Shown: positions 198 to 63,943, counted from the first letter of the whole stretch. The stretch: DNA of 64,000 nt, filler included, from Stramenopiles sp. TOSAG23-6 (GCA_900128565.1; 12 parts of 12 records of this genome joined end to end with filler, not necessarily neighbours in it); one strand, 5' to 3'. A program made the numbers and translations. The notes: generated from the sequence alone by a model not told the origin.

Positions 198-2414
198 TTA
201 TTGTTTTCTTCTTCTTCTTCTAAACTTTGGACTAAATCTTGAGAGGAAACTTCTCTTTTTCTTCAACTCTCCCTTTTTACTATTTCTAGTAGAAACTTTA
301 CTTGGAAAATTAGAGCCGCGTGCAAATAGTGGATTATCATGGGCATACTCAATAATTGCAACGTCTGAAGCTGAAGTACTATTTAAAAGGGCTTTTGATT
401 TAGTATCGATTCTTTCTTTTTCAAAATGAATCTTTTCATCTTTCAAAGTAGGCACCATAGTATTTTGAAAACTATTGGAATTGCCATGATCATTATACAT
501 GGACCTTCTTGAATTTATCAGACCTGAAAATGAGAATGACTTCATTCCTTTACTTTTATTTATTATTCCTCTACTATGTTGCAATTTTGGCTTACCAAAC
601 ACCCGTCTGGCTTTATTTGATGTTTTGTAAGCAGTGAAAATACCCCAAGGCCGAACTGCACTTTTTATTGTGTTTTCTGCTTTTATAATCGGATAAGACT
701 TACGTGGCATCATTTTTAAATCAATTAAAGGATTTGACCCTTCAATCCTAAATGTGTTATGTATACGCTGTAATTTGTTTTTACCTTGTATACCTATTTC
801 ATGTTTATCTCGTTCTGAACTATCATTGCTTTGGATATAGTTTTCTATTAGTTGCACGTTTTGCTCTTCATATTGATTACCATCAACGACATTCTTCGTT
901 TCATAATTTGTATCTGAGACAGCTTTATCAATCATGTCATTCGCCAATTCTTTTGCAATATTATCTAATGTTAAAGTTGTTTTTCTACCTAAAATACTTG
1001 CCGAATCTTTCCAAACAACATTTGATTCTTTAGTTGGCAAAGTATTCACATAATCTATTTCGTGTGCTGTATCATAATTTATTTTATTTGTATGATAATC
1101 TATTTGATGTTTTTTATTTGTAGGATTATAATCTATTTGATGTTTTTGATTCGGTGACATTAGATACATTTTTACACTCTCTAGTATCCGAATTTGTTCT
1201 ATATAAGCCACAACACCTAGGTCTATCAAACATTCTATGTCAAGCTGACATAAAATAGCACCATCTATGTCTTCTTCTTCAAAAGCACGTTTATGTATTG
1301 TGAAAAAATATTTCAAAAAAATCGTTAGGTACAAAATTTCATACCAAAAAAAAATTGATTCATGATGAAAACATACATGTTTTGACAAATCCGTTTGTTC
1401 TAACCACACTAAAACTTCCTGGGTGTTCCATAAAGGTAAATAGTGTGCCATACGTGTAATATAAGCCTCTGTTGGTGGTAACCACAAAGATGGTTTGTCG
1501 TCGTACTCGGAGGAAATTTGTTCAATCATTTGTGTTTTCCTCTGTTTGGAGTATTTTTCTATGACGTCATCATCAATAAAGCGAACATTTTTTATATTAT
1601 GGAAAACTTTTTCATTTGAGTTTGGGATACTATTCTTTGATATTTTAAGTCTTTCCTCTTCAAAACGTACTGTTTTTTTACTGAACTTGGAATTTAGGTT
1701 ATGAGCAATCTTCAATTCTGCACTTGCAATTTTCATCACTAAATTTACAGAGTTTTGTGTGACAAAACAATCTAATGAATGAGCTGTAATACTCTTATGC
1801 AACTTATATGCCAAACTTGCGCTAATACTATCACCAGAAGGAACACTTCTAATTGTTTCTAAAAACTGATAATTAGTCATCTCTTTGACAGGACTTGATT
1901 TGCTACCAGAAGTAAACACATCAAGCATCATTGCAGAAAAAATAGTAATGAACGCCGCTTCTTCCGAGCGGAAAACAACAAAATTTGAATTAATAAATAC
2001 TGATGCAAATGCACGAGCTACCATTTGAATCACTGAATAGTCTTCGACAATTTTAAAGAAACCCAAAAAATGCCGAAGCGAATGCTCAAAAGAACTTCGC
2101 TGGGGAAGCCTTGATTCCCACGCAAAAGCCTTTAGCAGATGGTAGGAAGAAATTCGTTTTGAAGCTGTTAAAAGACGCCCTAATAGAATCTTATCTAACT
2201 TTTGAAGTCTCTTCATTGATATAATATAGTACGCTATTGTATGATAATCTCTAAGTGAATCTATCAACCCATAATCAATCAGAAGCAAGATTGCAGCTTC
2301 TGGGCTCTTTTTGAAAAGTTCGATAAATTCTTCTTCAACTTGAGCTTCATGATCAGAAGACCATTCCCACATTACAGTATTGAAAAGCCTAGTACCACTG
2401 TATTTGTCATACAT
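198..2414 (-). CDS. Sec7-like domain + SAM domain protein; 2 exons (in-frame intron 1293-1376)
   Basis: N-terminal half resembles a Sec7 ARF-GEF domain (LDKILLGRLL, FEHSLRHFL, FRSEEAAFITIFSAMML). SAM motif WNTQEVLVWLE..DLSKH/KRAFEEEDIDGAILCQL becomes contiguous after removing 84 nt. Confidence 0.7.
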   Translation of the reverse strand: MYDKYSGTRLFNTVMWEWSSDHEAQVEEEFIELFKKSPEAAILLLIDYGLIDSLRDYHTIAYYIISMKRLQKLDKILLGRLLTASKRISSYHLLKAFAWESRLPQRSSFEHSLRHFLGFFKIVEDYSVIQMVARAFASVFINSNFVVFRSEEAAFITIFSAMMLDVFTSGSKSSPVKEMTNYQFLETIRSVPSGDSISASLAYKLHKSITAHSLDCFVTQNSVNLVMKIASAELKIAHNLNSKFSKKTVRFEEERLKISKNSIPNSNEKVFHNIKNVRFIDDDVIEKYSKQRKTQMIEQISSEYDDKPSLWLPPTEAYITRMAHYLPLWNTQEVLVWLEQTDLSKHVCFHHESIFFWYEILYLTIFLKYFFTIHKRAFEEEDIDGAILCQLDIECLIDLGVVAYIEQIRILESVKMYLMSPNQKHQIDYNPTNKKHQIDYHTNKINYDTAHEIDYVNTLPTKESNVVWKDSASILGRKTTLTLDNIAKELANDMIDKAVSDTNYETKNVVDGNQYEEQNVQLIENYIQSNDSSERDKHEIGIQGKNKLQRIHNTFRIEGSNPLIDLKMMPRKSYPIIKAENTIKSAVRPWGIFTAYKTSNKARRVFGKPKLQHSRGIINKSKGMKSFSFSGLINSRRSMYNDHGNSNSFQNTMVPTLKDEKIHFEKERIDTKSKALLNSTSASDVAIIEYAHDNPLFARGSNFPSKVSTRNSKKGELKKKRSFLSRFSPKFRRRRRKQ
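1293..1376 (-). other. family intron, GT-AT, 84 nt, phase 0
   Basis: cat|GTATGTTTTC...TGTACCTAAC...CACAATACAT|aaa; removal restores SAM domain spacing. Confidence 0.85.
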
Positions 2415-2820
2415 TCTATTGAATTTCAATGTATCATGAATGTACTGATATTAGGATATGTAAACTGTGTAATCCCTACTAGAGTAATTGGCGGTTGATA
2501 GGCATTATTCTTCACCTTGACGCTACTTGTGTATTACCTAGTAGGAGTATTTCCTGATTTTTACAGTTTCATTTTCACTTTTGCGTTAATTAACACACTT
2601 GACTTCGAAACTAAATAAAAAAAAACTCGGACAAACCTAAACCCTAAACCTAAACTCTTTTAATCACAATAAACAATGTGTGGGGAAATGTGGCCAAAAC
2701 TGTAACAAATTATTATCAACAATATCACATGAAATGTGTTTTATTTATAAACAACTCGTTGCTTTCTTATACATTGTAAGATTCTTAAATCCATTCTGTA
2801 AATGAATTGAACTCCACCGA

Positions 2821-5406: not shown

Positions 5407-5500
5407 GTTTTCATTTCAATTTCGAATTTATTTTTTTTTTCGTACGAAATTTTGTACCTAAAGAAAAACGTTTTTTTTTTGAAATATTTTTTCACATTAA

Positions 5501-7924
5501 ATCATCGTTCGGGAAGGAATGGAACATCCGAAATTCATATTGATTGAGGAGGGGAGTTGTAAGGTCATGACGCGAGCACATCATTCTTCTGGTGTTTTAG
5601 AAAAGGGTGATTGTTTTGGTGAAGATTCCATACTCAATAAAGATCTTACATCTGCAACGATTCTCGTTCATTCGGATATTCTAATAGTTTGGGTAGTCGA
5701 TGGAATTATCTTTGAAGATTTATTACGTCCACGAAAATATTCAATCATTCAAAGAAAATCCATCTTGAGTAAAATTGAATTATTTCGTGATTTGTCAACA
5801 GATCAGTTGTTACTTCTAGCAAATAAACTCGGAGAATGCTCATTTAAAAATGGTACAACAGTATTTTCTGAAAACGAGGAAGCAAATCATGTATGTTTTA
5901 TTTTTTTTTCAATTTCGAGTTTTTTTTTTCGTACGAAATTTTGTACCTAACAAATTTAAGTTTTTTTTTTTTGAATATTTTTCCAAAATACATATGTATA
6001 TCATTATATCAGGTAGCATTAAAGTGTTTACCACCCAAAGAACTCAGCAAAACATTGGATTAGGGTTAGGATTAAAAAATAGCAAAAATGAAACGAATCA
6101 ATATCCAAATAACTCTAATCAATATATTAGTACAATTTATCCAAATAAGATCATTGGTGTAACTGCATTATTATTGAATAAGAATCATTTCTTTACAGGA
6201 ATTGCTGAATCAGGAAAAGAGCAACCAACACAAGATATAGAACTATTTTCAATAAGTAAATTAGATGTGAGTGATATACTATCTATCTTATCTATACCAG
6301 TGATAGAAAGACTTCTAATAGCTCAACTTAGAACATTACCACAATATTACAGAAACTTAAATACAAATCTTGAAAAAATAATAGTTAATTCGATGAAAGT
6401 CAATAATTTTGAAACAGGCAGACACATCATTCCAGGTAATGACTATCCAAAAAATATGTTTTATATTTGTTCAGGAAGTGTCAAGATTATAAATATGTTG
6501 AAACAAAAGAGAAATGATAAAAATTATCCATTTTCAAAGAATTTCTCTACAAACAAAAACGAAACTGTGCATGTTTTTGATGAGAGTCATCATTCCTCAT
6601 CATTTCAAGATAATCAAGATAATGTTTTTGCTGGTGCTTTCTCATCTAAACAACGGAATAAAATTATTATTGCCGGTGAATTCTTTCCGGAAAGTGCAAT
6701 GTACGTTTTTATTATAATTTTTATTTTATTTTTTTTTTTGTAAAACTTTTTTGCACCTCACGAAAGTTTTGAAAAAAATGAAATAATTTTTCACAATACA
6801 TGAGTAAACGCCCAGAAATTGAAAATGACAAATATATTGTCAAATCAAATGCTGTTATAATTAGCTATATTACTGTTTCTGAAGCATATAACCAATTAAA
6901 ATATAATGGGGATAGAAATATGTCGTATGACGACATTAGTTCATCCGATATATCCTCAGATTCATCATATACATCAGATATTTCAGACACAAATCAAAAT
7001 AATGAGGATAATGATACAATGATGCTGTCACGTTTATTACATTCTACAATAAGTGAAGAAAACAATACAATAAATATCGACGCAAATATGACATTTCAAA
7101 AGAATAAAATAGACCAAAAAACAAAACTCAAATGTAAAAAGGATCAAAATGAGCATTTGAAATTGCAATCGCGTATACATCATCAAGAGCTAGTGTCTTT
7201 ACATCAAATAAAGAAAATTTCTCTGCTTGCAAAAATGACAAAATTAATGGATGAATTTATGGTGAAAAAACACGAATTTCATCGGTTACGACATAAACCT
7301 CGAAACAACCGATTATACAAAGCAGAAACTAATCCATATAATCAATATCCTGAAACAAATAGACATAGAAAGTTACTTATGGGTGCTCATATACATATGA
7401 AACGTGAGAGATATTTGAGGAAACATTTGCAAAAAGAAGCAGATAATAAGCGAAAATTAAAAATACAAGAACAAATAAAACAAAAGATAAAGCAAGAACA
7501 AATAAAACAAAAGATAAAGCAAGAACAAATAAAAAAAAGAAAACAGAAAAAACAAGAGCTTTTCAATGAAATAAATTATCCAGGAGTTTTGAATAATTTG
7601 GATTCTCTGAGTGAAATCAGTAAAACATTAGTAAAAGCTTTTGAAAAATTTACTAATGTAGAACGAAAAGATGTGAAATATATGACGCCATCAAGGACAA
7701 ACACTTTGTTTTCATACTCCAGACAAATTGGAGAATATGTCAATGAGGATGACATTTCTCCAACATCTTTTGATCAATATAAAAATAGACATTTTGATGT
7801 TCATGATGGGACACCAAAAAACACGCCTCCAAGTTCTCCTATCAAATATGAGAGACATTTTGATGTTCATGATGGGACACCAAAAAACACGCCTCCTGGT
7901 TCTCCTATCAAATATTTTTCATAA
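5501..7924 (+). CDS. cyclic-nucleotide-binding domain protein, 5' partial; introns 5891-5993 and 6701-6801
   Basis: Repeated cNMP motifs (FILIEEGSCKV..GDCFGE; FSENEEANH+MYIIISGSIKV; MFYICSGSVKI..GEFFPE); three ORFs join in frame after GT-AT removal. Confidence 0.8.
5891..5993 (+). other. family intron, GT-AT, 103 nt, phase 0
   Basis: cat|GTATGTTTT...CGTACGAAATTTTGTACCTAAC...CCAAAATACAT|atg gives ANH-MYIIISG; the first in-frame AG would delete the conserved strand. Confidence 0.88.
6701..6801 (+). other. family intron, GT-AT, 101 nt, phase 2
   Basis: gca at|GTACGTTTT...CACAATACAT|g agt joins ORF 5850 to ORF 6800; degenerate branch TGCACCTCAC. Confidence 0.8.
7786..7914 (+). repeat. 63-nt coding tandem duplication (RHFDVHDGTPKNTPP x2)
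   Basis: Near-identical direct repeat visible in DNA and protein. Confidence 0.85.
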
Positions 7925-8011
7925 AACAAATAAACGATACAGTACAAAAAATAAGTTTGATATTTTTATAATTATTTTACAGTACAAAAAATACGTTTGA
8001 TATTTTTATAA

Positions 8012-9124: not shown

Positions 9125-10584
9125 ATGTGGGGCGATGATAGAAATTCTTCAAAGTATAATGATTCAGACGCTAGCCTAGGTGATGTGGAGTTGGCTTTAA
9201 AAGGTGACAACTTGGCTGCAGTCGCTCGTAACATTGCTGCAAAAGAATCTGTCGTTTCCTTTGCTGATAAACCTCACCATAGTTTTGGAAATAATGGACA
9301 AGGTACACTGGAAGGTGTGTTTATACCATGTGTTCAAAACATTCTTGGAGTTATTATGTTTCTTCGAGTAGGCTGGATGACTGGCCAAGCTGGACTAGCA
9401 CTTCTTACTGGTCTCATGGTTCTCTGTGTGTCAGCGACAACCTTGACATCGCTATCTCTATCTGCTTTAGCTACAAATGGAAAAGTAGCATCTGGTGGAC
9501 CATATTACGTGGTGTCACGTAATCTTGGCCCTGCATATGGTGGTGCCATCGGGATTCTATTTTATTTAGGGACTACTATCGCTGGTTCAATGTATGCGTT
9601 AGGTGCGATAGAAGCCCTTCAAGCAGCATTTGAATTTGATAATGGTATTTTAGGTTTAGGTGAAAATACTAAATTAAATGAAATGCGTGTTGGTGCTATT
9701 TGTGTATTAATATTGGCTGGTTTAATCGTCAAATTAGGTATTAGAACGATTAATACAATTTCTATAATAGTGTTTGGTATTGTCATGCTTTCTGTTGTCA
9801 TGATGTTTAGTGGTTTAATTTTACACGCGGGAAAAGTGTGGCATCCTGATAACATTTTATCCGTACCCATCTCGGATAATTTCTCTTCACATTTTCAGAA
9901 AGATCCGGACACGAACATTACACCGAATTTTACAATCTTGTTAGGTATTCTTTTTCCAGGTTTTACTGGTATAATGGCGGGGACAAATCGATCAGGTCAA
10001 TTACGTGATGCAGGTCAGTCTATTCCTAGAGGAACTCTATGTGCAATATGTGTGACATTTATATTAAATTTAGGTGTTGCTTGGTTAGGTGGCTGTGTTG
10101 ATCCTCAAATTCTCAAAGATGATAAAACTATTCTAGCAACGATTGCATGGCCAAATCAATATCCCGTAGCCGTAGGAATTTTTTGTTCTTGCGTTGGTGC
10201 AGCCTTGCAATGTATAGCCGGTTCAGCACAATTATTACTTGCTATAGTAAAAGACGATACACCAACATTACGTTGGTTATTACCGTATACAGATATGTCA
10301 TATTCAATATGTAGTAAAGGTGTAAAACACAAATCAAATTCAAATGGAGACTTGACAGATGAATTAACCCCTAACCCTAACCCTAATAATGAAAACCCTA
10401 ACCCTAAGGAAAACATTGAACATCTAAACTTGAAGAAGAAGCAAGGTATCCCGTCTGTTTTATTAGGTATTAACGTTGGTATAGCAAGTTTATGCTGTAT
10501 ACCAGGTAATTTAGACGTAGTTTCGCCAATAGTGACAATGTTTTTTCTTGTCATGTATGCATCTATAAATGCAGCATGTTGTCT
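9125..10584 (+). CDS. cation-chloride cotransporter (SLC12 family), 3' partial
   Basis: GTLEGVFIPCVQNILGVIMFLRVGW, ATNG..GGPYYVVSRNLGP, FPGFTGIMAG.NRSG.L.D..SIPRGT; interrupted by a family intron at 10585 that runs into the contig end. Confidence 0.92.
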
Positions 10585-10805
10585 GTACGTTTTTATCATG
10601 TCGATTTTTAATTTTTTTTTTTTGAAACAATTTTTTTTTTTTTTTTTTTTTTTTAGTAAATTTCGTACCTAAAAAAAAAAAATATTTTTTTTTTGTGCAA
10701 TTTTTNNNNNNNNNNNNNNNNNNNNNNNNNNNNNNNNNNNNNNNNNNNNTTAATTAATTAANNNNNNNNNNNNNNNNNNNNNNNNNNNNNNNNNNNNNNN
10801 NNNNN

Positions 10806-10837: not shown

Positions 10838-10887
10838 CAAAAAAAAAAAAAAAAAAAAAAAAATCAACCCTAACCCTAACCCTAATA

Positions 10888-12402: not shown

Positions 12403-12663
12403 CTTGTAAATAAATAAATGTTTGGTGTATTATCACTTTTTTCACCATGCGCGGTTCGATATTTTAGGGGTTGTGTCGTCGAGTCAGTCCATGTGATGAG
12501 TCAAAAGTCGTCAAAAGTCGTCAAAAATTTGTCTCAAGTCTTAGGGTTAGGGTTTTGCTACCCGGTACCCATGTTTTTGTCAACGTTACAGTTTTTTATG
12601 TCCTCTCTCAAAATAAATATCGACAATTTATAAACATCTAAAACATCTAAAACATCTAAAACC

Positions 12664-13556: not shown

Positions 13557-14402
13557 GGACTTTGGATTCTCCCACCTCGGCAGGTACCGCAAGAATCGAA
13601 TTGGAAGCTCCTACACAGCGTAAATGTCGCTGGGCAGATGATCGCGAGGAGAGATCCAAAATTGATGCAATGATGCGAAATGGTACCCGTGGCAATGATG
13701 ATGAAAATCCTCATCAAAGTCAAAAGATGAATAGTCGTTGGTCTTGTATGTTTAATTTTTTTTTTTAATTTCGAATTTATTTTTTCGTACGAAATTTTGT
13801 ACCTAACGAATTTTTTAAAAAAAAATTTTGAAATATTTTTCCAAATTACATCGGATAGAGATGAAAATTCAGATATCACATTAATTGCACCAAAAGTTGT
13901 AAATTCTCGTTGGTCGAATCAAGTCAATCATGATACAAATTCAAAACATGATTCATCATCATCCACAACAAAAGAAGCAATACTATCAAAAGAAAAATCA
14001 GAGGAAGATTTGAAAAGGGAAAAAGAATTGGATGCAAAAATTCGTAAAATCCGAGAAAAAAACAAAAATGGACAAAAAAAAGGAAAAACGTTACCAGAAG
14101 GATTTACATTAGATCCTTTTGGGAACCCGGTACCTAAACAAAAATCTCAAACATTGCAAAATAATACTGAAAAATCACAGAGAGAAAAAGAAATCGATGA
14201 ACGTATTGCTGCCGTTCGAGCGAAAAATGCAGCTATAAAAGCTGGTACTTGGGTAGATCCAAATTTGACAAATTCTTCAACACAAAAAAAACATTCAAAA
14301 TTAGCTGCATTGGAAGCATCAACAGTACGTTTTAGTTTTTTTTTTTTTTCGTACAATTATCTACATTTATTTTTCATACGAAATTTCGTACCTAACGATT
14401 TC

Positions 14403-14433
<31 letters not shown>

Positions 14434-14677
14434 AAAAAAAATTTCATACGAAATTTCGTACCTAACGATTTAAAAAAAAAAAAAAAAAAAATATTTTTTC
14501 ACAATATATGTTGGTCCTGAACCATCTCAACATTTTTCAGCCACTTTACAAAATCTGTTAGAATCAATGAAAATCAGTTCAGAGGAAACTCAAAAAATGT
14601 CAGATATGAATCAAGAACAAATTTCAAAAATGGAATCAAAGACGCGTTCAATGAATCGCGAATTTCTCGCGGGACAT
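13557..14677 (+). CDS. hypothetical charged protein, partial; introns 13746-13851, 14325-14509 and a donor at 14678
   Basis: Three open segments join in frame on GT-AT removal. Confidence 0.6.
13746..13851 (+). other. family intron, GT-AT, 106 nt, phase 1; upstream exon ends TT
   Basis: tct t|GTATGTTT...TACCTAAC...CAAATTACAT|cg gat. Confidence 0.8.
14325..14509 (+). other. family intron, GT-AT, 185 nt, duplicated branch cassette; upstream exon ends CA
   Basis: aca|GTACGTTTT...(CATACGAAATTTCGTACCTAAC)x2...CACAATATAT|gtt, in frame with ATG 14567. Confidence 0.75.
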
Positions 14678-15463: not shown

Positions 15464-15921
15464 TTAGCACAAAAAAATATTTTTTTCCAAACTTTTAATC
15501 CCATATGAAGGTAAATTATCAATAAGATTTGCATCATCCTCAGTCACCTCATCCGATATTGTATTTTGTTTTTTTTGTGTATTTTGTGTATTTTGATTTT
15601 TTTGTTTGTTTCGTAATGAAGCCAGTTCTTCTTGCATGTATTGTGAAAAAATATTCAAAAAAAAAAAAATTTTTGTTAGGTACAAAATTTTTATAAAAAA
15701 AATTTCATACAAAAAAAATACAAAAAAAAAAAAATAAAATTTACATAATGATTTTAAGTTCATCAGACGTTAAATCTGAAGATTTTTTTTTTTTTTTGTA
15801 AAACATTTTCATCTAAAATTGTTTTTCGATTAGCAATTTTCATTATTTTTTCATCAACTGTAGATTTAATGACAAATCGAATAATTTTTACTACTTTTTT
15901 TTGACCTATTCTATGACATCT
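15464..15921 (-). CDS. SNF2-family helicase C-terminus, 5' partial; intron 15636-15744
   Basis: RCHRIGQKKVVKIIRFVIKSTVDEKI (helicase motif VI region), preceded by a TATAG acceptor at 15922. Confidence 0.8.
15636..15744 (-). other. family intron, GT-AT, 109 nt, phase 2
   Basis: att at|GTAAATTTT...TGTACCTAAC...CACAATACAT|g caa gives ELKIIMQEEL. Confidence 0.8.
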
Positions 15922-16201: not shown

Positions 16202-19200
16202 CACCAAATGCTTGGTTTTGGTTATAGTAATAAAGAAGGAGTTAAGGGAAATGTTGGGCGTTTTGGTATGGGTTTTAAGACATCATCCATGCGACTTGGT
16301 CGCGATGTCATCATCTTTACACAGAATGAAGAGAGCTGTTCCGTTGCGTTTTTCTCACAAACATATTTAGAATTAACTAAAGCTACAGAAGTTAAAATAC
16401 CCATCGTGTCTTGGCCTTACGCAGCTGTTCATTCAAATTCTTACAACGAAACTGAAGAATCTGAGGAAAACAAAGCTAATCTTAAAGAAATATTTAAATA
16501 TTCACCTTACGGTGGGACGCCTCTGATGCATGATGTGTTCAAAAACATGGCTAAAAGAGCAAAAGAAGCGAGATCTGGAAAATGTGCAACTGGGACTAGA
16601 GTACTTATTTATGGCCTTCGAGGTGTCGGTAAGAGTTCTGGTAAGTTTTCAGAAGAAACTCCAGATTTCAATTTCGTCCAAGATAAATATGATATTGCTA
16701 TATGGACTGGTGAGATAGATCATTACGTTCTTATCTAGAAATTCTATATCTTCGTCCTCGCATTAAAATGTATCTCCGAGGCAAAATAGTAACTCCACGA
16801 AATCCTCTCGAACGTTTAAAAAGATGTAGAAATGAGTACACATATAAACCAAATATTGTACCAGTTGGTCAAAAGAAACCTAAAGTCTTAGAGCCAATGA
16901 AATGTACTTTAGGTTTCTACGCTGAGAAGAGAGAAAAAGAGTTACGAAGACTTCGTAGAGGTTTGTCTTGTGGATTGCACATTTATAACAAAAACCGACT
17001 TATTCGATTGTATGAAAAGTTCGCATATCAACTTCAACAAAACAGTGTTGGAAAAAGTCTAATTGGAGTTGTTGAAGTTGACTGGCTCGAGCCTGTGCAT
17101 AACAAACAAGGCTTTGATACGTCAAAGGCAGTGTATTCGAAATTTCAAAAGAAAATGAATGAATTAATGAGGAAATATTGGCAATTTCAAACGGTGAGTG
17201 GTGCTGCTAAGCAATCTGGGTGGCGCAATAAAGGGAATGTATCAAGAAGTAAGAAAAGAAAAAAGACACCAACGAAAATGTCAACAAAACAAAAGCGAAA
17301 GAGAAATTCTTCTGAAGAATATCTTGTTAAACCAACATTTTCAAAGAGAATTAGATTTACTTCATCCAAAACGTCTCAGTCCTCTTCAGATGTAAATAAT
17401 AGTCAAAATGATACAAATAGTAGGAGAAGTTCTCGTCGAAGTAGTGGTAAAAATCGCCGTGAAGATTTTACAACGATAAGTTCCAGTGATGATGACGAAA
17501 GTGATTCAGTTGAATATAGTATGTACGATGATGCTTCTCCTACTACATTTAATCGCAGATTACATTCCAAAAATACAAATAATAATCAGGCATCTACTAG
17601 TAAAGCGACTAGTTTTTTTTCTTCTTCAAAAGTGAACAAAATTGCTGATTTCCGAAAAGTTGATTATAAATCACCCGAAATTTCATATAATGGTATAAAA
17701 GCAGAGTCGTTTAAAATTGGATTTTTATTTGATGCTTTAGACCAATCGAATGAGTGGTATACTGGCCTAGTTCAAAATATATCGTTCATTCCTTCAAATT
17801 TACCTGGTAAAGGAGGCCGTGTACTTGCCAGATGGAAGGGTGGTACTGTCTGGTATGCTGGAATTATTCAAAATGAGATTGAGCCATATAGTATTCGATA
17901 TACCGATGGTGAGGTAGAACATGCGGTTCAAAGAGAGTTTATTCGATTTCCTGATTCTAATAGAAGAATTCGCCAATCGGATAAAACTCATTTAATTCTC
18001 GAAGTTCATTTTATTGGATGGACTAATGATAGTGATGAATTTTTTCGATTGCCACGCGACTTCAATCGATTTTCAACACTTGGTTCAACTTGTAGTGAGA
18101 TAAAATCAAGGGATGTTCTTCTCTCTGAACTGTCTATTGGACGACATTCTAATTTTTTCAGAAATTCTGTTCCAGATATAAAACTACAGTCGTTTTTATT
18201 ACTTTTAGACCGTATACAAAATCATCATATATATACCGAGAGTAATGGCAAGTGTTGTACTTTACATGTTTTTACTCAAGGCAAAGAAAATACAACGGTG
18301 CTTGCCATCAAAAATCTTTTCAATGATATATCCCCCTATGAAAGGTATACACACGAACAGTTTGCAGGTATTATCACACTTCTCTTGGATAAAAAAAATG
18401 ATAAAGAAAGCGAAACAAATCAAGAAATGAATACGACATCTAAAAATGATGTTATCTTTCGTTTGCAATGTAAAAAAATTCTTTATCAAATTGTTTTGGA
18501 ATGGTTCAGTGAAGCAAATGAATATTTTGGAAATGAATCATCTCAAAATAATTCATTTAGTAGTGACTATAATGAAAATCAAGAAGAACACGACCAAATT
18601 ATAGAAATTGAAGAATTCGACAATATGAAATGTAGAAGAAAGCAAATAAAACCTCAACGATTTCACAGTGGTGTCAATTCAGAATCGCAGTCCGAATTAT
18701 TAGATGTACATGTAAGTACAAATAATACTAGTAGCATATCAAATGACAATGGAGCGATTATGCAACATACCTTATTGAATAATGCTGTTTTATTAGATGA
18801 ACGTGTAACTACAAGTAATAATAGTAATACTAGTAGCATATCAAATGACAATGGAGCGATTATGCAACATACGTTATTAAAGAATGCTGTATTGTGCGAA
18901 TCTAATCATTTGATACACCAAGATCAAGATAAACATGATAATGATGAACGTTTTCCCCAAGGTTTTGTCAGTGAAAATATAGATTCTTCTTCTAAAGATA
19001 AAATTGATCAATTGCAGAAGAAAGTGAGTGAAATTAGCGGAATTTCATTGGAAAATGTTTTAGAATATTGGTCAATCGCTCGTTCCTCTTTTAATCATTC
19101 TGTAAATAATAATGCAAATATTTTGCCCGCCGAAGATTTAGCTAAAATAATTAGTTTAATTGAAAAATCTGTATCGTTGGATGGTGATAGTGTTTTGGTA

Positions 19201-19245
19201 TCGATGGATGCTGTTTTAGAATCGATGGATGCGAAGACTGAATAA
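16202..19245 (+). CDS. MORC family GHKL ATPase with Tudor-like module, 5' partial; apparent frameshift near 16715
   Basis: VGRFGMGFKTSSMRLGRDVIIFT, FFSQTYL, KYSPY, GTRVLIYGL, then SLRSYLEILYLRPR in another frame, YNKNRLI, LEPVHNKQGF; VLARWKG..WY.G.I..YSIRYTDGEVE. Confidence 0.85.
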
Positions 19246-21594: not shown

Positions 21595-21909
21595 TATGAA
21601 TATTATTATAACACAAATACAGGTGAAAGTGTTTGGACTTTACCAATGCCATTAGTAAAGAATATTGAAAACCCTAACCCTAATAACACAGGAAATCCTA
21701 ACCCTAAGGAAAACAAAACACAATTGACAAGAATGATTAATGATGCTAGTAGTATTACATCAAAAACAAATAGTTTGAAATTCCATAAAAAAATACCAAC
21801 CCCTCCATTGAAAAATAATGATACAAATAATTTGAATACATTACATACATTACCTCCACCTCCACCAAAGAATGAAAAACAACTTCAATTACTCTGGCAA
21901 GAATGCTAA
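21595..21909 (+). CDS. WW-domain protein, C-terminal fragment
   Basis: YEYYYNTNTGESVWTLP at the contig start, followed by a Pro-rich tail. Confidence 0.7.
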   Translation, partial: YEYYYNTNTGESVWTLPMPLVKNIENPNPNNTGNPNPKENKTQLTRMINDASSITSKTNSLKFHKKIPTPPLKNNDTNNLNTLHTLPPPPPKNEKQLQLLWQEC

Positions 21910-22233
21910 ACGAAATACAACACGAAAACTTCAATTACTCTGGCAAAAATGATGCGCGGCACTCGGCACTCTTAGGGTTAGGGTTAGGGTTTTAATAAAA
22001 TATTAATAATAATAATCTAGAAAAAACAGGATACGCGTATCCGTATCCAAAACAAAGGTATATTCAAAAGTAGTGTACCATCTTTCGTAAAAGAACAAAC
22101 TATATAAGTACATAACGGGAAAACACAAAGTGATCTACACCTTCTTCAAAACGACTTAATAATAATTAATAATAAAGAATATATAAACACATTCTTTATT
22201 CAAAGATACTACAAGAACCAGCGAAAATAAATA

Positions 22234-23110
22234 ATGACGACCACATCCGAAACTCCACTGTTGCGAGGGAACTCGAGTGTGAGTAAGAAGAAGCCATTCT
22301 GGACAAAACAAAAAGTAATCATACTTGTAGTCTTTCTAGTGGTTGCAATATCTCTTGGTATTTTAATTCCATTGGTCTTTCTACGTCGTTCAAAGCCAAG
22401 TTATAAGCCACCACCACCACCAGGACCACCACTACCCACACGTAAGCGTATAAAACTAATTAACGTTACAAGTGATCCCATACAAATTGATTTACTTACA
22501 GTTGTTCGATATGGCAAGGTTAATCATAACAATGACAACATTGACATTGGTCATACTGTACGTTTTTACAATTGAATTTTTTAACTAAATTTTTTTTTTA
22601 TAAAAATTTTGTACCTAACCAAAAAACAAATTTCGAATTTAATTTTTTTTTACAATACATGTACTTTATTTGGGTAATACATTACATTCACCACACCACT
22701 TCAAGATGGATCTTAGAACTAGTGAATATTATGATGTAAATTATACATATCTAGAAAAACCACAAAGAAGCTTTCAGTTTATACCTGATCAAATTTGTTA
22801 TACAATGAAATTAGATCATGCTTTAAGCGTTACTCATGTAATAAGCAAAATGCGTGAATGGTGGAAGCAAAATTTTGAACAATTTAAAACGTATAACAAA
22901 AATACTGCAAATTGTAGGATGTATATTGATTCAATGGCTTCCTTAATCACGAAAGATAATTCGATTCAATATCCCTCAAAATTAATGGGTTCAATTAAAT
23001 GGAAAGATTTACTCAAAGAAAATGATTCACAACAAAATTCACTTGTAAAATGTCCAAGAAGAGTTCTTTTGTTGAAAAAAAAACAAAAAAAACAAAGAAT
23101 GCTATTGTAA
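22234..23110 (+). CDS. membrane-anchored permuted papain-like (PPPDE/LRAT-like) putative peptidase; intron 22558-22660
   Basis: N-terminal TM; spliced GHT-VLYLG and YNKNTANCRMYI resemble the His/Cys dyad motifs. Confidence 0.5.
22558..22660 (+). other. family intron, GT-AT, 103 nt, phase 0; upstream exon ends CT
   Basis: act|GTACGTTTT...TGTACCTAAC...TACAATACAT|gta ctt tat ttg, in frame with ORF 22670. Confidence 0.82.
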
Positions 23111-32400: not shown

Positions 32401-32432
<32 letters not shown>

Positions 32433-32450
32433 GAAAACATGAAAACATAC

Positions 32451-43004: not shown

Positions 43005-43152
43005 NNNNNNNNNNNNNNNNNNNNNNNNNNNNNNNNNNNNNNNNNNNNTTAATTAATTAANNNNNNNNNNNNNNNNNNNNNNNNNNNNNNNNNNNNNNNN
43101 NNNNAAATTTCGTACGAAAAAACATTCGAATTTGAAAAAAAATAAAACATAC

Positions 43153-45184: not shown

Positions 45185-48100
45185 ATGGTCCTTCCCGGAG
45201 TCCCCGTCTTACAGGCATCATTACAAAAACTTTCTCATGGGTCAAATGACAAACTAAGTAGCTGGGACACTCACTTCTTCCGCACAAATGTGAGTAGTCG
45301 AAGTCTCGAATATTACAAAAATGAAACGGCCCCATCAGGGAAAATGCTTGGGTCAATACCGCTTGAGGATATTCAAGCAATCACTCGAGTTGATCAGCGA
45401 CATTTTGTCTTGAAAATAAATTTATTGTTGGGTTCAGAAACGCCAGAAACGTCTAAATATTGGTTGGATAAGCTAGAGGGATTTATTCACGAGAATGCCG
45501 CACACCAATGTGGACAAGCTGTAGTGAATGCTCGAAAAGATGTGGAAATGAAGAACAAAGCTGCACGTTCAGTTGAAGGCCCAGCAACGCGACCATCACG
45601 CCGTCGCTCACGAAAACTCCATAAAAGATTAAGCTCTAAAATTGGAAAAGTTGGAGCTAAAGCTGCAAGTAAAGTGAAGGGTGGAGTGACTAGAGGTTCT
45701 CACATTGTTGCGAAGCATGCAGATAATTTCGTGTCGAATTCTCGCGCAACAAAAGGTTTGAGAAATGCTGTAAAGAGTATTGATAATTCTTCACACATTA
45801 AAAAAATACGAAATGCTGGGCATATGGCAACAATTGCTTTTATGGGTTCACCAGACGACATTGGTGGAATTACTTTTGAGGAATTTAGACGTTGGTATCT
45901 TGAAACACAAGTTGATGAAGATATGAGATATATTCAAGAAAAAAATAAGGATAACAAAAATGCTAATCAGGCTGGTTATATGTATAACTTATTTCAAAGG
46001 TTTGACGAAGATAATTCTGGTACGCTTGAGAAGGAAGAAGTTCGAAAACTTTTGAAAATGCTTGGAAAGAAATCAACAGGTTTATTTCGCTTGAAAAGGT
46101 CCAAATTAGATGCGGCCTTTGCAGAGATGGATTCAGATTGTTCTGGAATGATAAGTTTTGACGAGTTTGTCGACTGGTGGCAGTGGAAGCATCCTGAAGA
46201 AAAAGTTGAATGTATGTTTTATTTTTTTCAAATTCGATTTTTTTTTCGTACGAAATTTTGTACCCAACGATTTTTTTTTGAAATATTTTTCCAAAATACA
46301 TGGACTGTAGATCAACGTATTAAATATTTGTTTGATAAAATTGATACGGATAATTCAAATTTACTAGAGAAAAAAGAAGTTAGAAAATTATCTAAACTTT
46401 TAGGTAATCGACTCACATCCATGTGGAAAGGGCAAGATGCTTTAGACCGTGCGTATCAAGAAATGGCATCTAAAAGGCCAGAAAGAATGCCGGACTTTGA
46501 GGATGATGCTGTGGATGAGACGAAAAGCAGTGATATAGATGATGCCGATGATGCCGAAGATGTTATGGATGAATCTAAGAATAGTGAAATTTATGAAGAA
46601 TCTAAGCAAGTGAATAATAATGAATTGGATACAAACGTAGACAAGGAAGCAAATCAAACAAGCATTGCAAACAAAAATGCTGCTACTAAGAAGGAAAGTA
46701 GTCCTCGAACTGTTAGACAAAGGAATATTTATGCTGATTTTCCATCCTCAATCAGTGAACGAGTTGAAAAGAAAAGTTCAAAGAAGAAGAAAAAGAAAGC
46801 GAAACAGTCAAAGGTGGTTAAGAAATCAGTAAAAACAAAACAAAATATGAAAGACGAAAGTCCGCCAATGACACCAGCGCCACCTACGAAGCCATATACA
46901 CCAGATGGATCAAAAACCAAAACAAGACTCCCACCAAATACAAATCAAATTTCAAGTGAACTAACTTTCGATGAAAAGATACCAAAGCAGAAAATTTCAA
47001 CCAAAGAGGTTTCAAATGAAAAACCAACAAAGCGGAAAACTTCAACTGAAAAAACAACAAAGCGTAAAACTTCAAATGAAAAAACAACAAAGCGGAAAAC
47101 TTCAAATGAAAAACCAACGAAGCGGAAAACTTCAAATGAAAAAACAACAAAGCGGAAAACTTCAACCGAAGAAATTTCAAACGAAAAACCAACGAAGTTG
47201 AAAACTTCAACTGAAGAAATTTCAAATGAAAAAGTTTTAAATAAAAAAAAACAACAAACTCCAAAGACATTTGATGAAATATCTAAAGAATTAACAAAGT
47301 TCTACCACCGTTACGCACCTGATCGAGTTCACAAGGTACCTAAAGTATTGAAAAAATACAAAGGCAAGGAAGGCATTCTATACGACATGTACAAGAAAAA
47401 GTACGGCGATGCTCCAGATATTCTACTTCATTTGAAAAACGAGATGGTGGAGGATGATATAAAAGCCATAGAACCAGCAAAAACAACAAACAAAGTACAA
47501 AAGAGTTATAAAAAAGATCCACCAGTCCCCCCTCCGACTGCAGCGGTAAGTATTTCAAATAAAATTACGAAAGCACCACCAGTACTACCTGTTGACAGTA
47601 CACCACCAAGCAGTATAATTGAGAAGGATCATTCAGTAGAGGACAGTGAAACAATGGGGGATAGCTTGTCATTTACTGCAAATCAACACCAAGATGACAA
47701 TAATGGGGATGAGGATGGTGAGGAGGAGGAAGATGGGGAAGATGATGTTGATAAGGAGGATGGTGGTGATGAGGAGGATGATGAAATGGAAGAAGATGAT
47801 GGAGAAAATGATGGAGATGATGGAGAAGATGATCGGGAAGATGATGGGGAAGATGATGGGGAAGATGATGGGGAAGATGATGGGGAAGATGGGGAAGATG
47901 ATGTCGGAGGATCATGGGATGATGAACCAGAACAAGAGAAATTGCTTCAAAGTAATCAGGAGGATTCTAAAACAATACGCAATGTAAAAGAGTACGTAAA
48001 TAATCAATATTCTGAAAGTGACCACGAAGATGATGTAGTCAAAGAATCTGAAGTAAAATATACAGAACCTGAGTCTGAAGAATCTGAATCTGAAGAGGGT

Positions 48101-48365: not shown

Positions 48366-49059
48366 NNNNNNNNNNNNNNNNNNNNNNNNNNNNNNNNNNN
48401 NNNNNNNNNTTAATTAATTAANNNNNNNNNNNNNNNNNNNNNNNNNNNNNNNNNNNNNNNNNNNNTTTGTACCTAACAAATTTTAATTTTTTTTTTAAAT
48501 ATTTTTCCAAAATACATACATCTTCTGGAAAAAACAAAAAAAAAAAAAAACGAAAACGAAATCGTGATTATGATTAACTGTAAATTATGTTTTTTTTTTG
48601 AAATGTAAAAAAAGAGATGGGTTGAAGATATACTGGGTTTTGATGTATAAAATCCTTGTAAAAAAATGTAAATTGGGTTTTGAAATTGAATGTTATATAA
48701 TAAAATTCTTTTTAAAACGTTGTTTTTTTTTCGTTCGAAATCGATTTCGATTTCGGATTTATTTAGATTTGATTATAAATTTCAAAATCGACAAAAAATC
48801 AAAAAAAAAAAAAAAAAAAAAATTCGACGTCGTGTCAAATTCCCTTGGTCAAACACAAAAAACAAAGATTGATCAATTGATTCCATGATCATATAATATA
48901 TCAAAAGAGTATTGAAATATAGTAGTATACTCTTATATCATTATACATTTCATCATTCCTTGTACATTTCTCTGTTATATATTGTTTGATCTAGTTCAAA
49001 CATTGTATTTCCAGAGAGACATTGAAGCATAACACTAATTGAGATAGTACAATTACATA

Positions 49060-50040
49060 ATGAATAGTTTGAGTTCATCTGAAAATACTTTGCTAGGTAT
49101 TGTCACTGGAGCAGAAGTTCTTTTGGTTGTTCAACCTTTAATATTTTGGAAAAATAGTAAACAACAGTCATTACCCTTTACTGCTAATCCACGTACAATA
49201 TATAGAGGTCTTGGTGCTTCTGTGTCTTCTCAAGCGTCCGTCACTGGTGTGCAATTCTTCACGACTGGCATCATTAAACATTTCTTGACACAAGATTCTG
49301 ATAGAAATCTATCATCAACAGAAACTATATTATCTTCTCTCATTGGTGGTTGTTGTAGTGGATTACTATGTGGACCCACAGAACTTTTAATGATTCAACA
49401 ACAAAGACATGTACATTTTTTATGTTTCATTTCTAATTTCTAATTTTTTTTTATAGAAAATTTTGTACCTAAGAAAAAAAACATTTTTTTACTATTTTTT
49501 TTTGTATAGGGTGGAACATTAATTAATGCAGCGAAACAATTATGGAAAGGAAAAGGAATTACAAGTATGACACGTGGCATTCTTCCATCTATAATGAGAG
49601 AAGGTGTGTATTGTACAGGATATTTAGGTATAGCACCAGTGGTTTCAATACATTTTGAAAATACTTTTGTTAATAATAATAATAATAATAGAAAAAATTT
49701 TGAACATTCTGAACATTCTGAACATTCTGAACATTCAGACACATTTGAAAATTCTGGTGGAATTCGTGCACGATTAGCAGGTGCAATTGTGGGTGGTCTT
49801 TTTGCTGGTATTGTTAGTCATCCACTTGACACAATTAAAACAAAATTACAAGGCGATGGTTTAAGTAAGAAATATTGTACCATCCGTGACGTCATTGTAG
49901 AAACACGAAATAATAGAGGTTTAATCAATGGATTGTATAAAGGAGTTTTATGGAGAAGTGCTACAATAATCACAGCTACTTTACTTATGAATATATTTAA
50001 AGATTATACAGCACCTGTTTTATTTCCTACAAAATTATAA
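49060..50040 (+). CDS. mitochondrial carrier family (SLC25) protein; GT-AG intron 49411-49509
   Basis: QPLIFWKN..Q, PTELLMIQQQ, HPLDTIKTKLQGD signatures. Confidence 0.9.
49411..49509 (+). other. family intron with canonical GT-AG ends, 99 nt, phase 0
   Basis: cat|GTACATTTT...TTTTGTACCTAAG...GTATAG|ggt gga, in frame with ATG 49567. Confidence 0.85.
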
Positions 50041-53637: not shown

Positions 53638-53898
53638 GTACGTTGTTTCATTATGAATTTCAAATTTATTTTTTTTTCATAGTAAATTTTGTACCTAACA
53701 AAAAAACAAAATTGAAATATTTTTCNNNNNNNNNNNNNNNNNNNNNNNNNNNNNNNNNNNNNNNNNNNNTTAATTAATTAANNNNNNNNNNNNNNNNNNN
53801 NNNNNNNNNNNNNNNNNNNNNNNNNTTTCAATTTTCGTTGTTGGGTACAAAATTTCGTACCAAAAAAAAAAACAAAACAATTAAAGTGGACAACATAC

Positions 53899-55024: not shown

Positions 55025-56317
55025 ATGGGGGAAATTCATGCAATAGCAACAACGCAGCAGAAGTTGGACTTTTATAAACCACCTAGTGCTATGAAATTTG
55101 TCACTGAAAAGAAGTACCTCAAAGGAATGAAACTTTTGGACATAGAAAGTTCACAAGACGAGGCTTTGGTATCTCTTGAATTTGCTGCGAGACTTGGGCA
55201 TGCAAAGGCACAAATCCAGCTATATCACATTTATGGAGATCGTACCAGAGCTTTAGAGTGGTTAACATTTGCGGCGGAGAAAGGTGATACCGAAGCTCAG
55301 TACTTGCTTTCCTGTCATATCCGGAAACAGCTACCGGGTGAACACTCTAACGAGACTAACGAGACTAACGAGACTCCTACTTCTTGGTTGACTTTGCTGA
55401 TGAACGCGGCATGCAAAGGCCACGCTGATGCGCAAAGGGAGCTTGCTATTTGTTATTTGAATGGCGTCGGTGTGCTGAAGTGTGACACCAAAGGCTGTTC
55501 TAGATTCGAGGCTGCGAGTCATTGGCTGTTGAAAGCTTCGGCACAAAATCATGCGTCTGCTCAATTCAAGCTTGCGACTCTCTACGTTAGATACGCCAGT
55601 TGTCAGACGAGTGGCTCACTCAAAGAAGTTGTACAATTATATACAAAATCGGCAGAGAATTACAATGAAGCGGCAATGTGGGTCTTGATTGATATATATA
55701 ATAATGGCAAGTTTGGCGAACCAAAATGTCTTAAAAAGTCATTTATGTGGTATGAAAAGTTAGCTAATCTAGGTGATAGTAAAGCCCAATATGAACTAGG
55801 TGTACGTTTTAAGCTTGGCGATGGATGTAGGCAGTGTAACGTGAAAGCATTTGAATGGTTTTCAATTTCAGCTGGCAATGGCAATAAAGATGCACTCAGT
55901 GCTGTTGCTCATTGCTACGAGAGAGGTTGTGGCGTGGAAAAGTCTTTGCTTCAAGCTTCACGATTGCAAAAAATTGCTGGGGAGTTTGAAAGAGCAACGA
56001 AGACAAATGGTGTCGCATATGTACGTTTTAAAAATTGAATTGAATTTTGTTTTTTGTCGTTTTTTGTACGAAATTCCGTACCTAACGATTTAAAACAAAA
56101 AATTGAAATATTTTTCACAATATATGTAGACACTGCGTATGTTTGTGAGTCTGCGCGCACGTGGAATAAGTGCAAATTGCGGCGAGCTATCCAGACATCC
56201 ACCAAGCACAGAACAATTGGGATAAAAAAACATGAGTCAAAACAACACCGGCGCGACCAACGACGACACTGGAAACAAATAAATTGGTCCAAGGGTCGAA
56301 GAAATAATTGGTCCTAA
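55025..56317 (+). CDS. Sel1-repeat protein; intron from 56021 to 56125 (AT) or 56129 (AG)
   Basis: Multiple AA..G...AQ..L...Y..G.G repeats; both acceptors give open last exons. Confidence 0.85.
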
Positions 56318-58794: not shown

Positions 58795-59085
58795 TATCAT
58801 CTACTCTATCTTTTTCAAAGAGAGAAACTTCTGGATAATTTGTAGCATCACGAAACCATGATCGTGCATATGTCATGTACAATAGAGGTCTAATCTCAGA
58901 TGTTTCATTTGCACCACCATAATGCAATGTTCTATAATCATGAATAATTACTGAACCCTATATTTTTTGTACAATATCTTTTTTTGATTTTTTTTGTTAG
59001 GTATGGAATTTTCTATGAAAAAAAAATGAGAATACTGGTTAGGGTTAAAACGTACATTTCCTTCTAGCAAAGATTCATCAAACTT
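58795..59085 (-). CDS. PhyH-family 2OG-Fe(II) dioxygenase fragment; GT-AG intron 58958-59055
   Basis: GSVIIHDYRTLHYGGAN..RPLLYMTYARSWFRD. Confidence 0.8.
58958..59055 (-). other. family intron with canonical GT-AG ends, 98 nt, phase 0
   Basis: aat|GTACGTTTT...CATACCTAAC...AAATATAG|ggt tca. Confidence 0.82.
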
Positions 59086-59239
59086 NNNNNNNNNNNNNNN
59101 NNNNNNNNNNNNNNNNNNNNNNNNNNNNNTTAATTAATTAANNNNNNNNNNNNNNNNNNNNNNNNNNNNNNNNNNNNNNNNNNNNTTTGTACCTAACAAA
59201 TTTTAGTTTTTTTTTTTCAAATATTTTTCCAAAATACAT

Positions 59240-59597
59240 TGATCGTGCAAAATCAATTCGAGATATTTTAGCTCCAAACTTATGTTACAAAAGTGTTGTA
59301 GATTGTGACCACGCTGCCGAAAGTAAAGAAAAGAATGTTTTTCATCATGAATTTCATTTTTTTTTGTATGAAAATTTTGTACCTAACGATTTTTTTTACA
59401 TCAAAAAAAAAAATTCACAATATATGAGTAAAATTGTTGGACGTTTAAAACTGCTTCAGCAAATACTGGGGAAAACTGGAAGAACGAAAGAAACTGTCAA
59501 ATTGTTTTGTGAAAAAGTGAGATTTGAGCATAAAACTCTCTTGGATCGAATTCAAAATGTTCAACTTGAACAAGTGAATAATACTCAAACTGAATAG
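59240..59597 (+). CDS. hypothetical protein 3' end with an in-frame family intron at about 59333-59425
   Basis: Open frame after a family acceptor; internal TACCTAAC element. Confidence 0.55.
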
Positions 59598-60043
59598 ACT
59601 TTGATATGAAAAAGTCAAGAGTTTACAATTGTTTACAATTAGTTCTAGAAGTTGTACTTTTTTTTATTAAAAACAAACTGAATAGAGTATTATATATACT
59701 AGAAGGATTAATTTTATTTTGTACAAATAGTTAAAATTACAATAAATTTGTAGAAAATGTTTCAAACAAGTGTAAAATTACTATAAATTTAGAACTACAT
59801 AAATTGTATCGAAATGAACAGGACATTCCAGATATCATTGAAGAAGTAAATTTGTTTTACAGTGGCAGAAGAACCTAACCTAACCCTACCCTAACCCTAA
59901 TTCCAAATTTCCAAAAAATTCCAATAATGTCGCAATAAGCAGGTTTATTCCCATAATTAAATTGTAACTGTCGAAAGTCAACTGTCAAAAAAAGGCCAAC
60001 GGAAATTGAGTTACTTCACCCACCGTTGAACAAAACTATCATC

Positions 60044-62305: not shown

Positions 62306-62509
62306 ATGCTTCTTCAATGAAAAATAATCTTTAAAATGAATTTTCAGGTAGTTCTATAGCTACGTATTAACAAAGTATATAAAAGTATATTTATTTATGT
62401 TGAATCATAATAAAATAGTGCAATCACAAAATTTTGTTTTAAAAATATTTTCATTAACAAATTTCGTACCTAATGATTTTTTTTTACTAAAACTTGTACC
62501 TAACAATAC

Positions 62510-63943
62510 TCATCTATGGTCTAGTATTGTACTACGAAGTGTTTTTCTTGCTCCAGCTCTATACTTGTGATATCGACTTAATACCCTTTCAATCTCTTTT
62601 TCTTCAGAAAAATCAATCTCTATCTTTCTAGTTTTTGGTAAATTTAGACGTTTCTTCAATACGATATCGTGTTCTGTCGTGAAGGAATATGGAGGGGGTA
62701 ATCCCCTACTTGTAGTTTCTACACTATTTTCACGGTATATTTGACGTGGTGGTGTAGGTGGATATATTTGACGTGGTGGTGTAGGTGGATATAATTGACG
62801 TGGTGGTGTAGGTGGATATAATTGACGTGGTGGTGTAGGTGGAGTTCCGGTGTCAATAGACTCATCAATAAATTTTTTTGATCTTTTAACATCGTCTGTA
62901 AGTGGAGGAATTGGAGGGAAACCCGTCATTTTTCCAGTATTACTTAATTCGTTATATGTACGTGAAGTGTCTGAACTTTTTGTTTGTTTTGTTTGTTTTG
63001 CTTGAACATCAAAATTGCTTTTTCTTGCTGGGGATAAATATGTTTGAGAAATTGATTCTAATGACGACTGATGAAAATTAACATTTCTATTTTTTGGCCA
63101 TGCTAATAGTATAGATGAATCATTACTACTTTCATCATTTGTACTAGAAGGATGAATCCTATTTGTATCAAAATCACTGCCAAGTTTTTCATGATACACT
63201 TTCAAGTGTGAAAAATGTGTTTCAGCTCGTTGCTGTTTTACAAGAGGCTCAGGCTTTTGTCTTGTTTCATTCGAATTACTATCCGATAAATGAGATGAAG
63301 ACATTTGTCTTGTTTCAACTTTACTATTTGACTTGTTTTGAGTTGTACTAAAATTGGATTCAAATGAAATATTGTCATCTTCGAATAATGGTGTTTCTTT
63401 CTGAAAAGTATAATTTTGTTGTGGTAAAGATTCTGCAGGCAATTCTGTATTATGAACTATTTTTTCATCTTTGAAATTTTCGTGAAAGGTTGATGTTTTG
63501 TGAAAAAATATTTTTTCAAAACATTGAAATGTGTTAGGTATAGAATTTCGTACGAGAAAAAAAAATGAAAATCAAATGAAAACGTACATTTCGTTTTTGA
63601 TCTGTCTTGATTGTCATTATTACTATCAATAATATGCTTATACTTGGCATGTTGTAACGTATAATTATGTATTTTGGAAAAATATTTGAAAAAAAAACAT
63701 AAATTTGTTAGGTACAAAATTTCGTACGAAAACAAATCGAATTTGAAAAAACATAAAACATACATAATTCGACGAAAGGACATCTTGCATATTTTTCCAT
63801 GTTACCTCTCCCGTTTTTTCAATATCAAATGCACGAAATAATGCTTTCATTCGATGTGTACTAATCTTTAGCTTATATTTTCGTAATCCGTGGCAAAATT
63901 CATCAAAAGTTATAGTATTTGAACGATCTCTGTCTAAACGATA
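62510..63943 (-). CDS. EF-hand protein with PPTPPRQ repeats, 5' partial; introns 63667-63763 and 63493-63587
   Basis: DRDRSNTITFDEF, FDIEKTGEV; three ORFs join in frame by GT-AT removal. Confidence 0.78.
63493..63587 (-). other. family intron, GT-AT, 95 nt, phase 1
   Basis: aaa t|GTACGTTTT...TATACCTAAC...CACAAAACAT|ca acc, in frame with ORF 62510. Confidence 0.83.
63667..63763 (-). other. family intron, GT-AT, 97 nt, phase 0
   Basis: tat|GTATGTTTT...CGTACGAAATTTTGTACCTAAC...CCAAAATACAT|aat. Confidence 0.83.

Follow-up and report, generated by a model that had tools for sequence, protein, structure and literature searches.

Introners in Micromonas, Aureococcus and Pelagomonas show that one repeat family can furnish many introns of unrelated genes: the copies are short, lie in the sense orientation, bring their own splice signals and are bounded by a short repeat. 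Here we describe an introner-like family that shares these traits in a 64,000-nt window (the whole stretch of DNA analyzed, filler included) of Stramenopiles sp. TOSAG23-6 (GCA_900128565.1), and whose copies are probably removed as introns that begin with GT and end with AT. Like Aureococcus and Pelagomonas, the host here is a marine, stramenopile-like organism. In the passages that characterize those elements, an AG acceptor is reported for all 956 putative copies in Pelagomonas (10.1101/2021.10.25.465678), and canonical motifs together with terminal inverted repeats of constant length are reported for Aureococcus (PMC7789003). The family described here differs in its AT acceptor (16 of 18 complete copies), in terminal complementarity of at most 6 bp, and in a length of about 100 nt, against about 210 nt there. 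It also resembles the fungal introner-like elements in size and multiplication; these are near-identical spliceosomal introns of about 100 nt that multiplied without clear terminal repeats, and they are GT-AG introns.

Other comparisons are offered by systems whose intron ends are themselves unusual. The introners of Amoebophrya are likewise non-canonical repeats with direct repeats of a few bases at their boundaries and an ambiguous exact cut (PMC7789003). As far as the section of that work on Amoebophrya goes, no dinucleotide signature is kept there and inverted repeats of 8–20 nt form a hairpin, whereas our elements retain GTAYGT and a branch box, depart from the canonical pattern only at the last base, and yield no predicted hairpin. 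Most introns of Fritillaria borealis are non-canonical (AG-A(N)) and are handled by U2-type machinery, according to the brief citation in PMC7789003; as summarized there, they depart mainly at the 5′ end (AG...), whereas the elements here combine a canonical 5′ end with a deviant 3′ end. GT-AT introns of the minor spliceosome, in the published excerpts discussed below, share the terminal dinucleotides, but their donor and branch consensus and their branch-to-3′ distance do not fit our elements, and they form a small minority where ours form the bulk.

A sequence-only reading of this DNA had proposed 15 complete GT-AT introns in unrelated genes on different contigs. The elements are real, and they do lie on different contigs, as the window joins 12 contigs of 4.8–5.3 kb each (arranged longest first and linked by N44-TTAATTAATTAA-N44 spacers), but that reading had not recognized them as members of a single repeat family. 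The core TTYGTACCTAAC, with one mismatch allowed, occurs 34 times in the window against 0.57 expected in shuffles, and a sequence model built from 16 copies recovers about 38 copies or fragments at E < 1e-4 across some 63 kb. The pattern is genuine and lies far beyond chance. Complete copies are 84–136 nt long, with one of 185 nt that contains an internal duplication, and pairwise identity among copies reaches at most 89% (median 70%). About 10 contig ends fall within copies, which is the usual effect of a high-copy repeat on short-read assembly. When metagenome contigs were searched with the element core, the one real match was an independent contig (L001) that carries a copy with the same ends, the removal of which gives a 214-codon frame. 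The same core matched prokaryote genome contigs once, by chance, and viral contigs 35 times, none of these being an element.

Copies lie in genes for kinesin, cNMP-binding, EF-hand, Sec7, LRR, carrier, mS35 and other proteins, so that many similar sequences occupy intron positions in unrelated genes, as in introners. Element density is about one per 2 kb. Apart from one break in a MORC-type gene (described below) and two N gaps, every break between long same-strand open reading frames (ORFs) coincides with a member of the family; within this sample, the element family is essentially the whole intron complement. All 18 complete copies (16 AT-type and two AG-type) are in the sense orientation, with intact frames on either side. 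That the introns are copies of a single family changes the evolutionary reading, from many old introns altering their ends to the spread of one family.

All 15 elements of the sequence-only reading were found at the positions given for them, and all begin with GTA (GTAYGT in 13, GTAAAT in one and GTAGGT in one). Removal from GT to AT restored the reading frame in 15 of 15, with open frames on both sides, where chance would give an in-frame cut one time in three. In 14 of these, 47–80 codons are open per side, and 13 have 64–80 on both; the lower bound comes from the element at 39141 (79 and 47 codons), and the remaining element, at 15636, adjoins a short exon (22 and 57 codons). The claim that all three phases occur also held, with five copies in phase 0, eight in phase 1 and two in phase 2. 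The phase 0 copies are 1293–1376 (−, 84 nt, CAT/GTATGT...ATACAT/, in a Sec7/SAM gene; the slash marks the proposed boundary), 5891–5993 (+, 103 nt, the same CAT/GTATGT...ATACAT/ ends, in a cNMP-binding gene), 14325–14509 (+, 185 nt, upstream exon ending CA, 3′ end ATATAT/, branch box duplicated internally), 22558–22660 (+, 103 nt, exon ending CT) and 63667–63763 (−, 97 nt, with 79 and 69 codons open). Those in phase 1 are 13746–13851 (+, 106 nt, exon ending TT), 25718–25828 (+, 111 nt, in an LRR gene), the diverged copy at 27664–27799 (+, 136 nt, donor GTAGGT, a duplicated TACCTAAT box and 3′ end ATACAT/), 39141–39243 (−, 103 nt, in an mS35-like gene, SQL^CGPRY), 39403–39495 (−, 93 nt, 3′ end ACCCAT/), 41575–41667 (+, 93 nt, splitting the kinesin-13 P-loop as GSGKT^YTM), 46212–46301 (+, 90 nt, in an EF-hand gene) and 63493–63587 (−, 95 nt, 3′ end AAAACAT/). 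The phase 2 copies are 6701–6801 (+, 101 nt), whose branch box has diverged, and 15636–15744 (−, 109 nt, donor GTAAAT).

Beyond these, we found one further complete AT-ending copy at 56021–56125 (+, 105 nt, phase 0, 3′ end ATATAT/), which follows a Sel1-repeat exon and is also in frame. The two complete copies said to end in AG were likewise recovered, at 49411–49509 (+, 99 nt, phase 0, ending GTATAG/, in a mitochondrial carrier gene) and 58958–59055 (−, 98 nt, phase 0, ending AATATAG/), and both are in frame. Frames are thus restored in 16 of 16 AT-type and two of two AG-type complete copies. A length divisible by three occurs in seven of the 18, no more often than chance would give. Three of the elements with such lengths (1293–1376, 39403–39495 and 46212–46301) contain no in-frame stop, and their retention would insert 28–31 residues without truncating the protein.

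The exact position of the cut is clearest in the kinesin gene, where removal rebuilds GQTGSGKTYTMSALQ (GQTGSGKTYTM) without gaps against 13 homologs. Downstream AG dinucleotides fail at this junction: those at +10 and +20 shift the frame, that at +24 gives a stop, and that at +27 deletes nine conserved residues. Fifteen AT-type copies carry an AG within 60 nt downstream; the first such AG is in frame in only eight, and one of the eight gives a stop. A copy that lacks the family's 5′ part (39691–39779, −) follows the same pattern: its ...ACAT/ end keeps the frame with the sole GT donors close by, at 39779 or 39776 (phase 1 in either case), and the AG 2 nt beyond is out of frame. Judged from these frames and from the conserved kinesin motif, the elements must be removed exactly at their ...YAT end if the genes are to encode protein. 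The statement that conserved motifs are rebuilt exactly is borne out in full for kinesin; for mS35 and SAM, Pfam gives the assignments themselves only weak backing.

Aligned copies show (nearly) invariant columns in three blocks: a 5′ block (T/GTA..TTT), a middle block (..AAATTTYGTACCTAAC, the ACC.AAC columns) and a 3′ block (...TTTTTYCAMAAYAYAT, the terminal A and T). The donor GT is present in 18 of 18 complete copies, and GTAYGT, as in U2-type donors, is perfect in 15. The nearly invariant ACCTAAC box is a CTAAC-type branch-like motif 32–48 nt from the 3′ end and is followed by a T-rich stretch, an arrangement that resembles a U2-type branch site and pyrimidine tract. Only the U2-type AG acceptor is generally missing: the last dinucleotide is AT in 16 copies and AG in two, with A at −2 in all 18. 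The 15 elements had been described as ending in YAT, usually AATACAT; all do end in YAT, as ACAT (13), ATAT (one) or CCAT (one). Both AG copies have YAG/G at the alignment position where the others have YAT/, which marks this position as a real acceptor. The exon base directly after the element is G in 11 copies, A in five and C in two. No consensus RNA structure was predicted from 16 copies.

Three observations concern these ends and boxes. A systematic miscall of G as the terminal T was considered and rejected, as the ..ACAT end recurs in L001 and two copies do have a G called at this position. An internal tandem duplication in three copies (14325–14509, 27664–27799 and 37486–37634) repeats the branch-like box and leaves two candidate branch sites. 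Finally, a partial copy at 26747–26884 (−) has a 3′ region extending 9 nt past the usual end (..AATATAG/G) shortly before an ATG, and could be another AG-ending member, the third, located in a 5′ untranslated region.

Our preferred explanation, to which we assign a probability of roughly 0.6, is that this is an introner-like family with U2-type signals whose copies are removed as GT-AT introns by the major spliceosome. In an AT-rich, marine protist of stramenopile-like affinity, a family of short elements would have spread from gene to gene, supplying essentially all the introns seen. Each copy would bring its own signals (donor GTAYGT, the ACCTAAC box with its T-rich stretch, and a 3′ ...AAYAYAT), and the spliceosome would remove the RNA from G+1 through the terminal T. 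YAU/ would then replace YAG/ as the acceptor in about nine-tenths of copies, with YAG/ still used where it has arisen. The routine use of AU as a 3′ splice dinucleotide, as the sequence-only reading had put it, draws support at the DNA level from the frames, the signals and the YAG homologs; removal in RNA is what these would imply. Whether the trait extends to the lineage, with a major spliceosome routinely taking YAU/ for YAG/ across the thousands of introns that the element density implies, all seeded by a single family, we consider a matter of even odds.

Several points weigh against this explanation. A crude strand call from ORF length on 35 core-bearing copies gave 20 sense, two antisense and 13 unclear, although the two antisense calls both concern partial copies close to contig ends. 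Homology fixes the exact position of removal, rather than the frame only, at a single junction (kinesin). The case for splicing is built on DNA sequence, and searches of protein libraries returned no protein of this organism, spliced or unspliced. Kinesin exon 2 found a best match of 56% identity in these libraries and none from this organism, while its first 120 aa found no match; the 168-aa mS35 frame also had no match there, and the exon after the 22558 junction had two (27–31% identity) among 1.84 billion representatives. We know of no class of AU acceptors for the major spliceosome, and the second step of splicing is understood to involve an interaction between an intron's first G and its last. 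The rare GU-AU introns in the published excerpts cited here are minor-spliceosome introns (10.1101/2020.10.12.336362, PMC8199999). In addition, 19 of 25 copies would give an identical mRNA if the boundaries lay two bases to the left, in an AT-AC register (ATGTAYG...ATAC/).

That shifted register is the alternative that survives best, and we nevertheless regard it as unlikely. It accepts the same family and the same mRNA, and makes the AT after the element exonic. Its appeal is that the first A and last C of AT-AC introns are a pair known to be compatible, and that the sequence often permits it: the last two bases of the upstream exon are AT in 15 of the 18 complete copies (19 of the 25 known 5′ ends), and 13 of 18 elements finish in ..ACAT. 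The GT-AT register is favored because it is GT and the terminal A[T/G] that stay constant, and because the left AT varies where the right AT does not. In six of 25 copies the exon dinucleotide before GT is TT, CA, CT (three copies) or TA, so that an AT-AC intron would have to begin with one of these; the register is impossible at 13746 (TT) and 22558 (CT). At the other end, positions −4 and −3 are not AC in five of 18 copies, which would leave introns ending in AT, CC or, for the AG type, AT. The AG-ending members further favor the GT-AT register because, at the same alignment position, both are plain GT-AG introns. In an AT-AC intron of either spliceosome one would expect a donor of the form ATA..., whereas the strongly conserved donor here is GTAYGT.

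A transformed minor spliceosome, removing these introns after an expansion like that in Physarum, seems more doubtful still. Such machinery is known to tolerate non-AG ends: GT-AT accounts for 17% of 1,014 non-canonical U12-type introns in the Physarum figures given in 10.1101/2020.10.12.336362, and GU-AU is listed among rare minor-intron termini in the relevant portion of PMC8199999. Compared directly, our donor and box each match six of eight bases of the U12 consensus. Nevertheless, the U12 donor RTATCCTT is missed by 2–3 bases in 18 of 18 copies, where GTAYGT is perfect in 15; the best matches to TCCTTRAY in the last 45 nt carry 2–4 mismatches; and the conserved box lies 32–48 nt from the 3′ end, against 10–20 nt for U12 introns. 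The donor and box therefore appear to suit major-spliceosome signals far better than minor ones.

Least probable, and by our estimate quite improbable, is a non-spliceosomal origin of the pattern (ciliate-IES-like DNA excision, a euglenid-like structure-dependent RNA route, dead insertions or assembly errors): short pointer-like repeats in direct orientation (AT, CAT, ACAT) lie across the boundaries, the termini form a weak palindrome (ATGTAT/ATACAT) and the assembly is fragmented, but the conserved blocks are a donor, a branch box and a 3′ end rather than symmetrical termini, complementarity between the ends is just 0–6 bp, the absence of a predicted consensus structure in 16 copies and the conserved GTAYGT do not resemble euglenid-type introns, the code is standard with best matches in stramenopiles, all 18 complete copies are sense-oriented with intact frames (unlike random insertions or pseudogenes), and the same ends recur in the independent contig L001.

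Under the preferred explanation of a spreading GT-AT intron family, the boundaries bear on how copies may arrive. The two ends share a 2-nt AT repeat in 19 of 25 copies and are complementary over only 0–6 bp, and the right AT persists in copies whose left dinucleotide is a different one. The AT that usually closes the upstream exon may be either a 2-nt target duplication from insertion or a preference for such insertion sites. Termini this weak do not demonstrate a transposon origin, and spread by reverse splicing is equally possible. Among the elements examined, no empty site or autonomous element turned up.

Searches of open full texts, and of passages from individual papers, turned up no account of an intron family with GT-AT ends, nor any of unusual introns in marine stramenopile single-cell genomes. 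By inference from its sequence, the present family would be a GT-AT counterpart to the AG-acceptor introners already known in Pelagomonas and Aureococcus. Few features of eukaryotic genes are as constant as the terminal G of their introns. If the preferred explanation is correct, a free-living organism in which about nine-tenths of introns end in U, donor and branch site being otherwise ordinary, would be a natural experiment on 3′ splice-site choice and a clear example of a non-standard acceptor carried along by a spreading intron family, and would imply that the last intron base is recognized in a relaxed or altered way at the second catalytic step. There are also practical consequences: standard gene finders and spliced aligners, built around GT-AG introns, would mis-annotate most of the genes in this widespread marine protist. 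According to the account of its filtering steps, a large introner survey dropped families with unfamiliar splice sites unless they were supported by RNA (PMC12130899); such surveys would miss this family.

The remaining members are mostly truncated at contig boundaries. Those cut by a contig start that keep the 3′ end comprise 5407–5502 (+, ..TTAAAT/, followed by a cNMP-binding exon) and four copies on the plus strand ending ..AATACAT/ (26985–27073, 37735–37785, 48466–48517 and 59186–59239). The copy at 37486–37634 (−), cut by a contig end and bearing the internal duplication noted above, has the same ..AATACAT/ end. Donors are preserved in 10585–10705 (+, cut by a contig end, after an AA_permease exon), where ..TCT/GTACGT shows an exon not ending in AT, and in 32361–32450 (−, cut by a contig start, in a second kinesin gene), where ..ACT/GTATGT does likewise. 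They are also preserved in 43105–43152 (−, a 5′ half cut by a contig start, ..ACAT/GTATGT), in 53638–53725 (+, cut by a contig end, ..AAT/GTACGT) and in 53826–53898 (−, cut by a contig start, ..ATA/GTATGT, with the exon ending in TA). At 59337–59425 (+), a copy 4 nt shorter at its 5′ end (GTTTTT) terminates in ATATAT/ and probably spans a start codon, where the frame test is uninformative. The copy cut by the window end (63947–64000, −) terminates in ..AATACTT or ..CTTTAT ahead of an EF-hand exon.

The window has a GC content of about 33%, and its long frames are open under the standard genetic code. In the protein-library search with kinesin exon 2, the closest relatives of the window's kinesin-13 were stramenopile proteins, at no more than 56% identity. 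Among element-bearing genes, Pfam supports the cNMP-binding, kinesin, EF-hand and Sec7 assignments. The mS35 assignment is weak (MRP-S28, E 0.003), and comparison of its exons with solved structures gave only noise; that of SAM is weak as well (E 0.002, under the curated cut-off), with exon 2 beginning at about profile position 22–23. A scan of the window against Rfam at gathering scores gave no match, and hence no small nuclear RNA within it. A 30-nt exon probe had no match in metagenome contigs. Public sequencing runs from 11 studies contain at least part of the contig 8 stretch, mostly a small share of it, and the runs with most of this contig are from seawater or marine samples. We take the source to be an uncultured marine protist with stramenopile affinities. 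Nine RNA runs contain part of contig 8, with shares of 0.27, 0.21, 0.10 and lower; such shares carry no information on splicing.

Other features of the window lie apart from the intron family. In the MORC-type ATPase gene (HATPase_c_3, then Morc6_S5), the frame changes between the ORFs 16202–16735 and 16714–19242 without an element; this change (window 16700–16740) may reflect an assembly error of one base or else a different, very short kind of intron. Two adjacent BspA-type leucine-rich-repeat genes (33425–34585 and 34874–35764; LRR_5, E 6e-111 and 2.5e-72) are closely similar, with an N-terminal stretch identical in both. A 384-codon frame at 37766–38917, rich in Glu, Lys and Gln and containing KQEDG-type repeats, adjoins the partial element at its contig start. 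Telomere-like TTAGGG/CCCTAA runs of two to four units occur in at least seven interstitial places in about 63 kb (10369–10407, 10868–10885, 12541–12552, 21672–21707, 21972–21989, 35947–35976 and 59889–59900), and L001 has a similar run at about 2260–2330, directly past a stop codon. Even a tandem pair of such hexamers is essentially never expected by chance, and the TTAGGG runs may be a regulatory or boundary motif.

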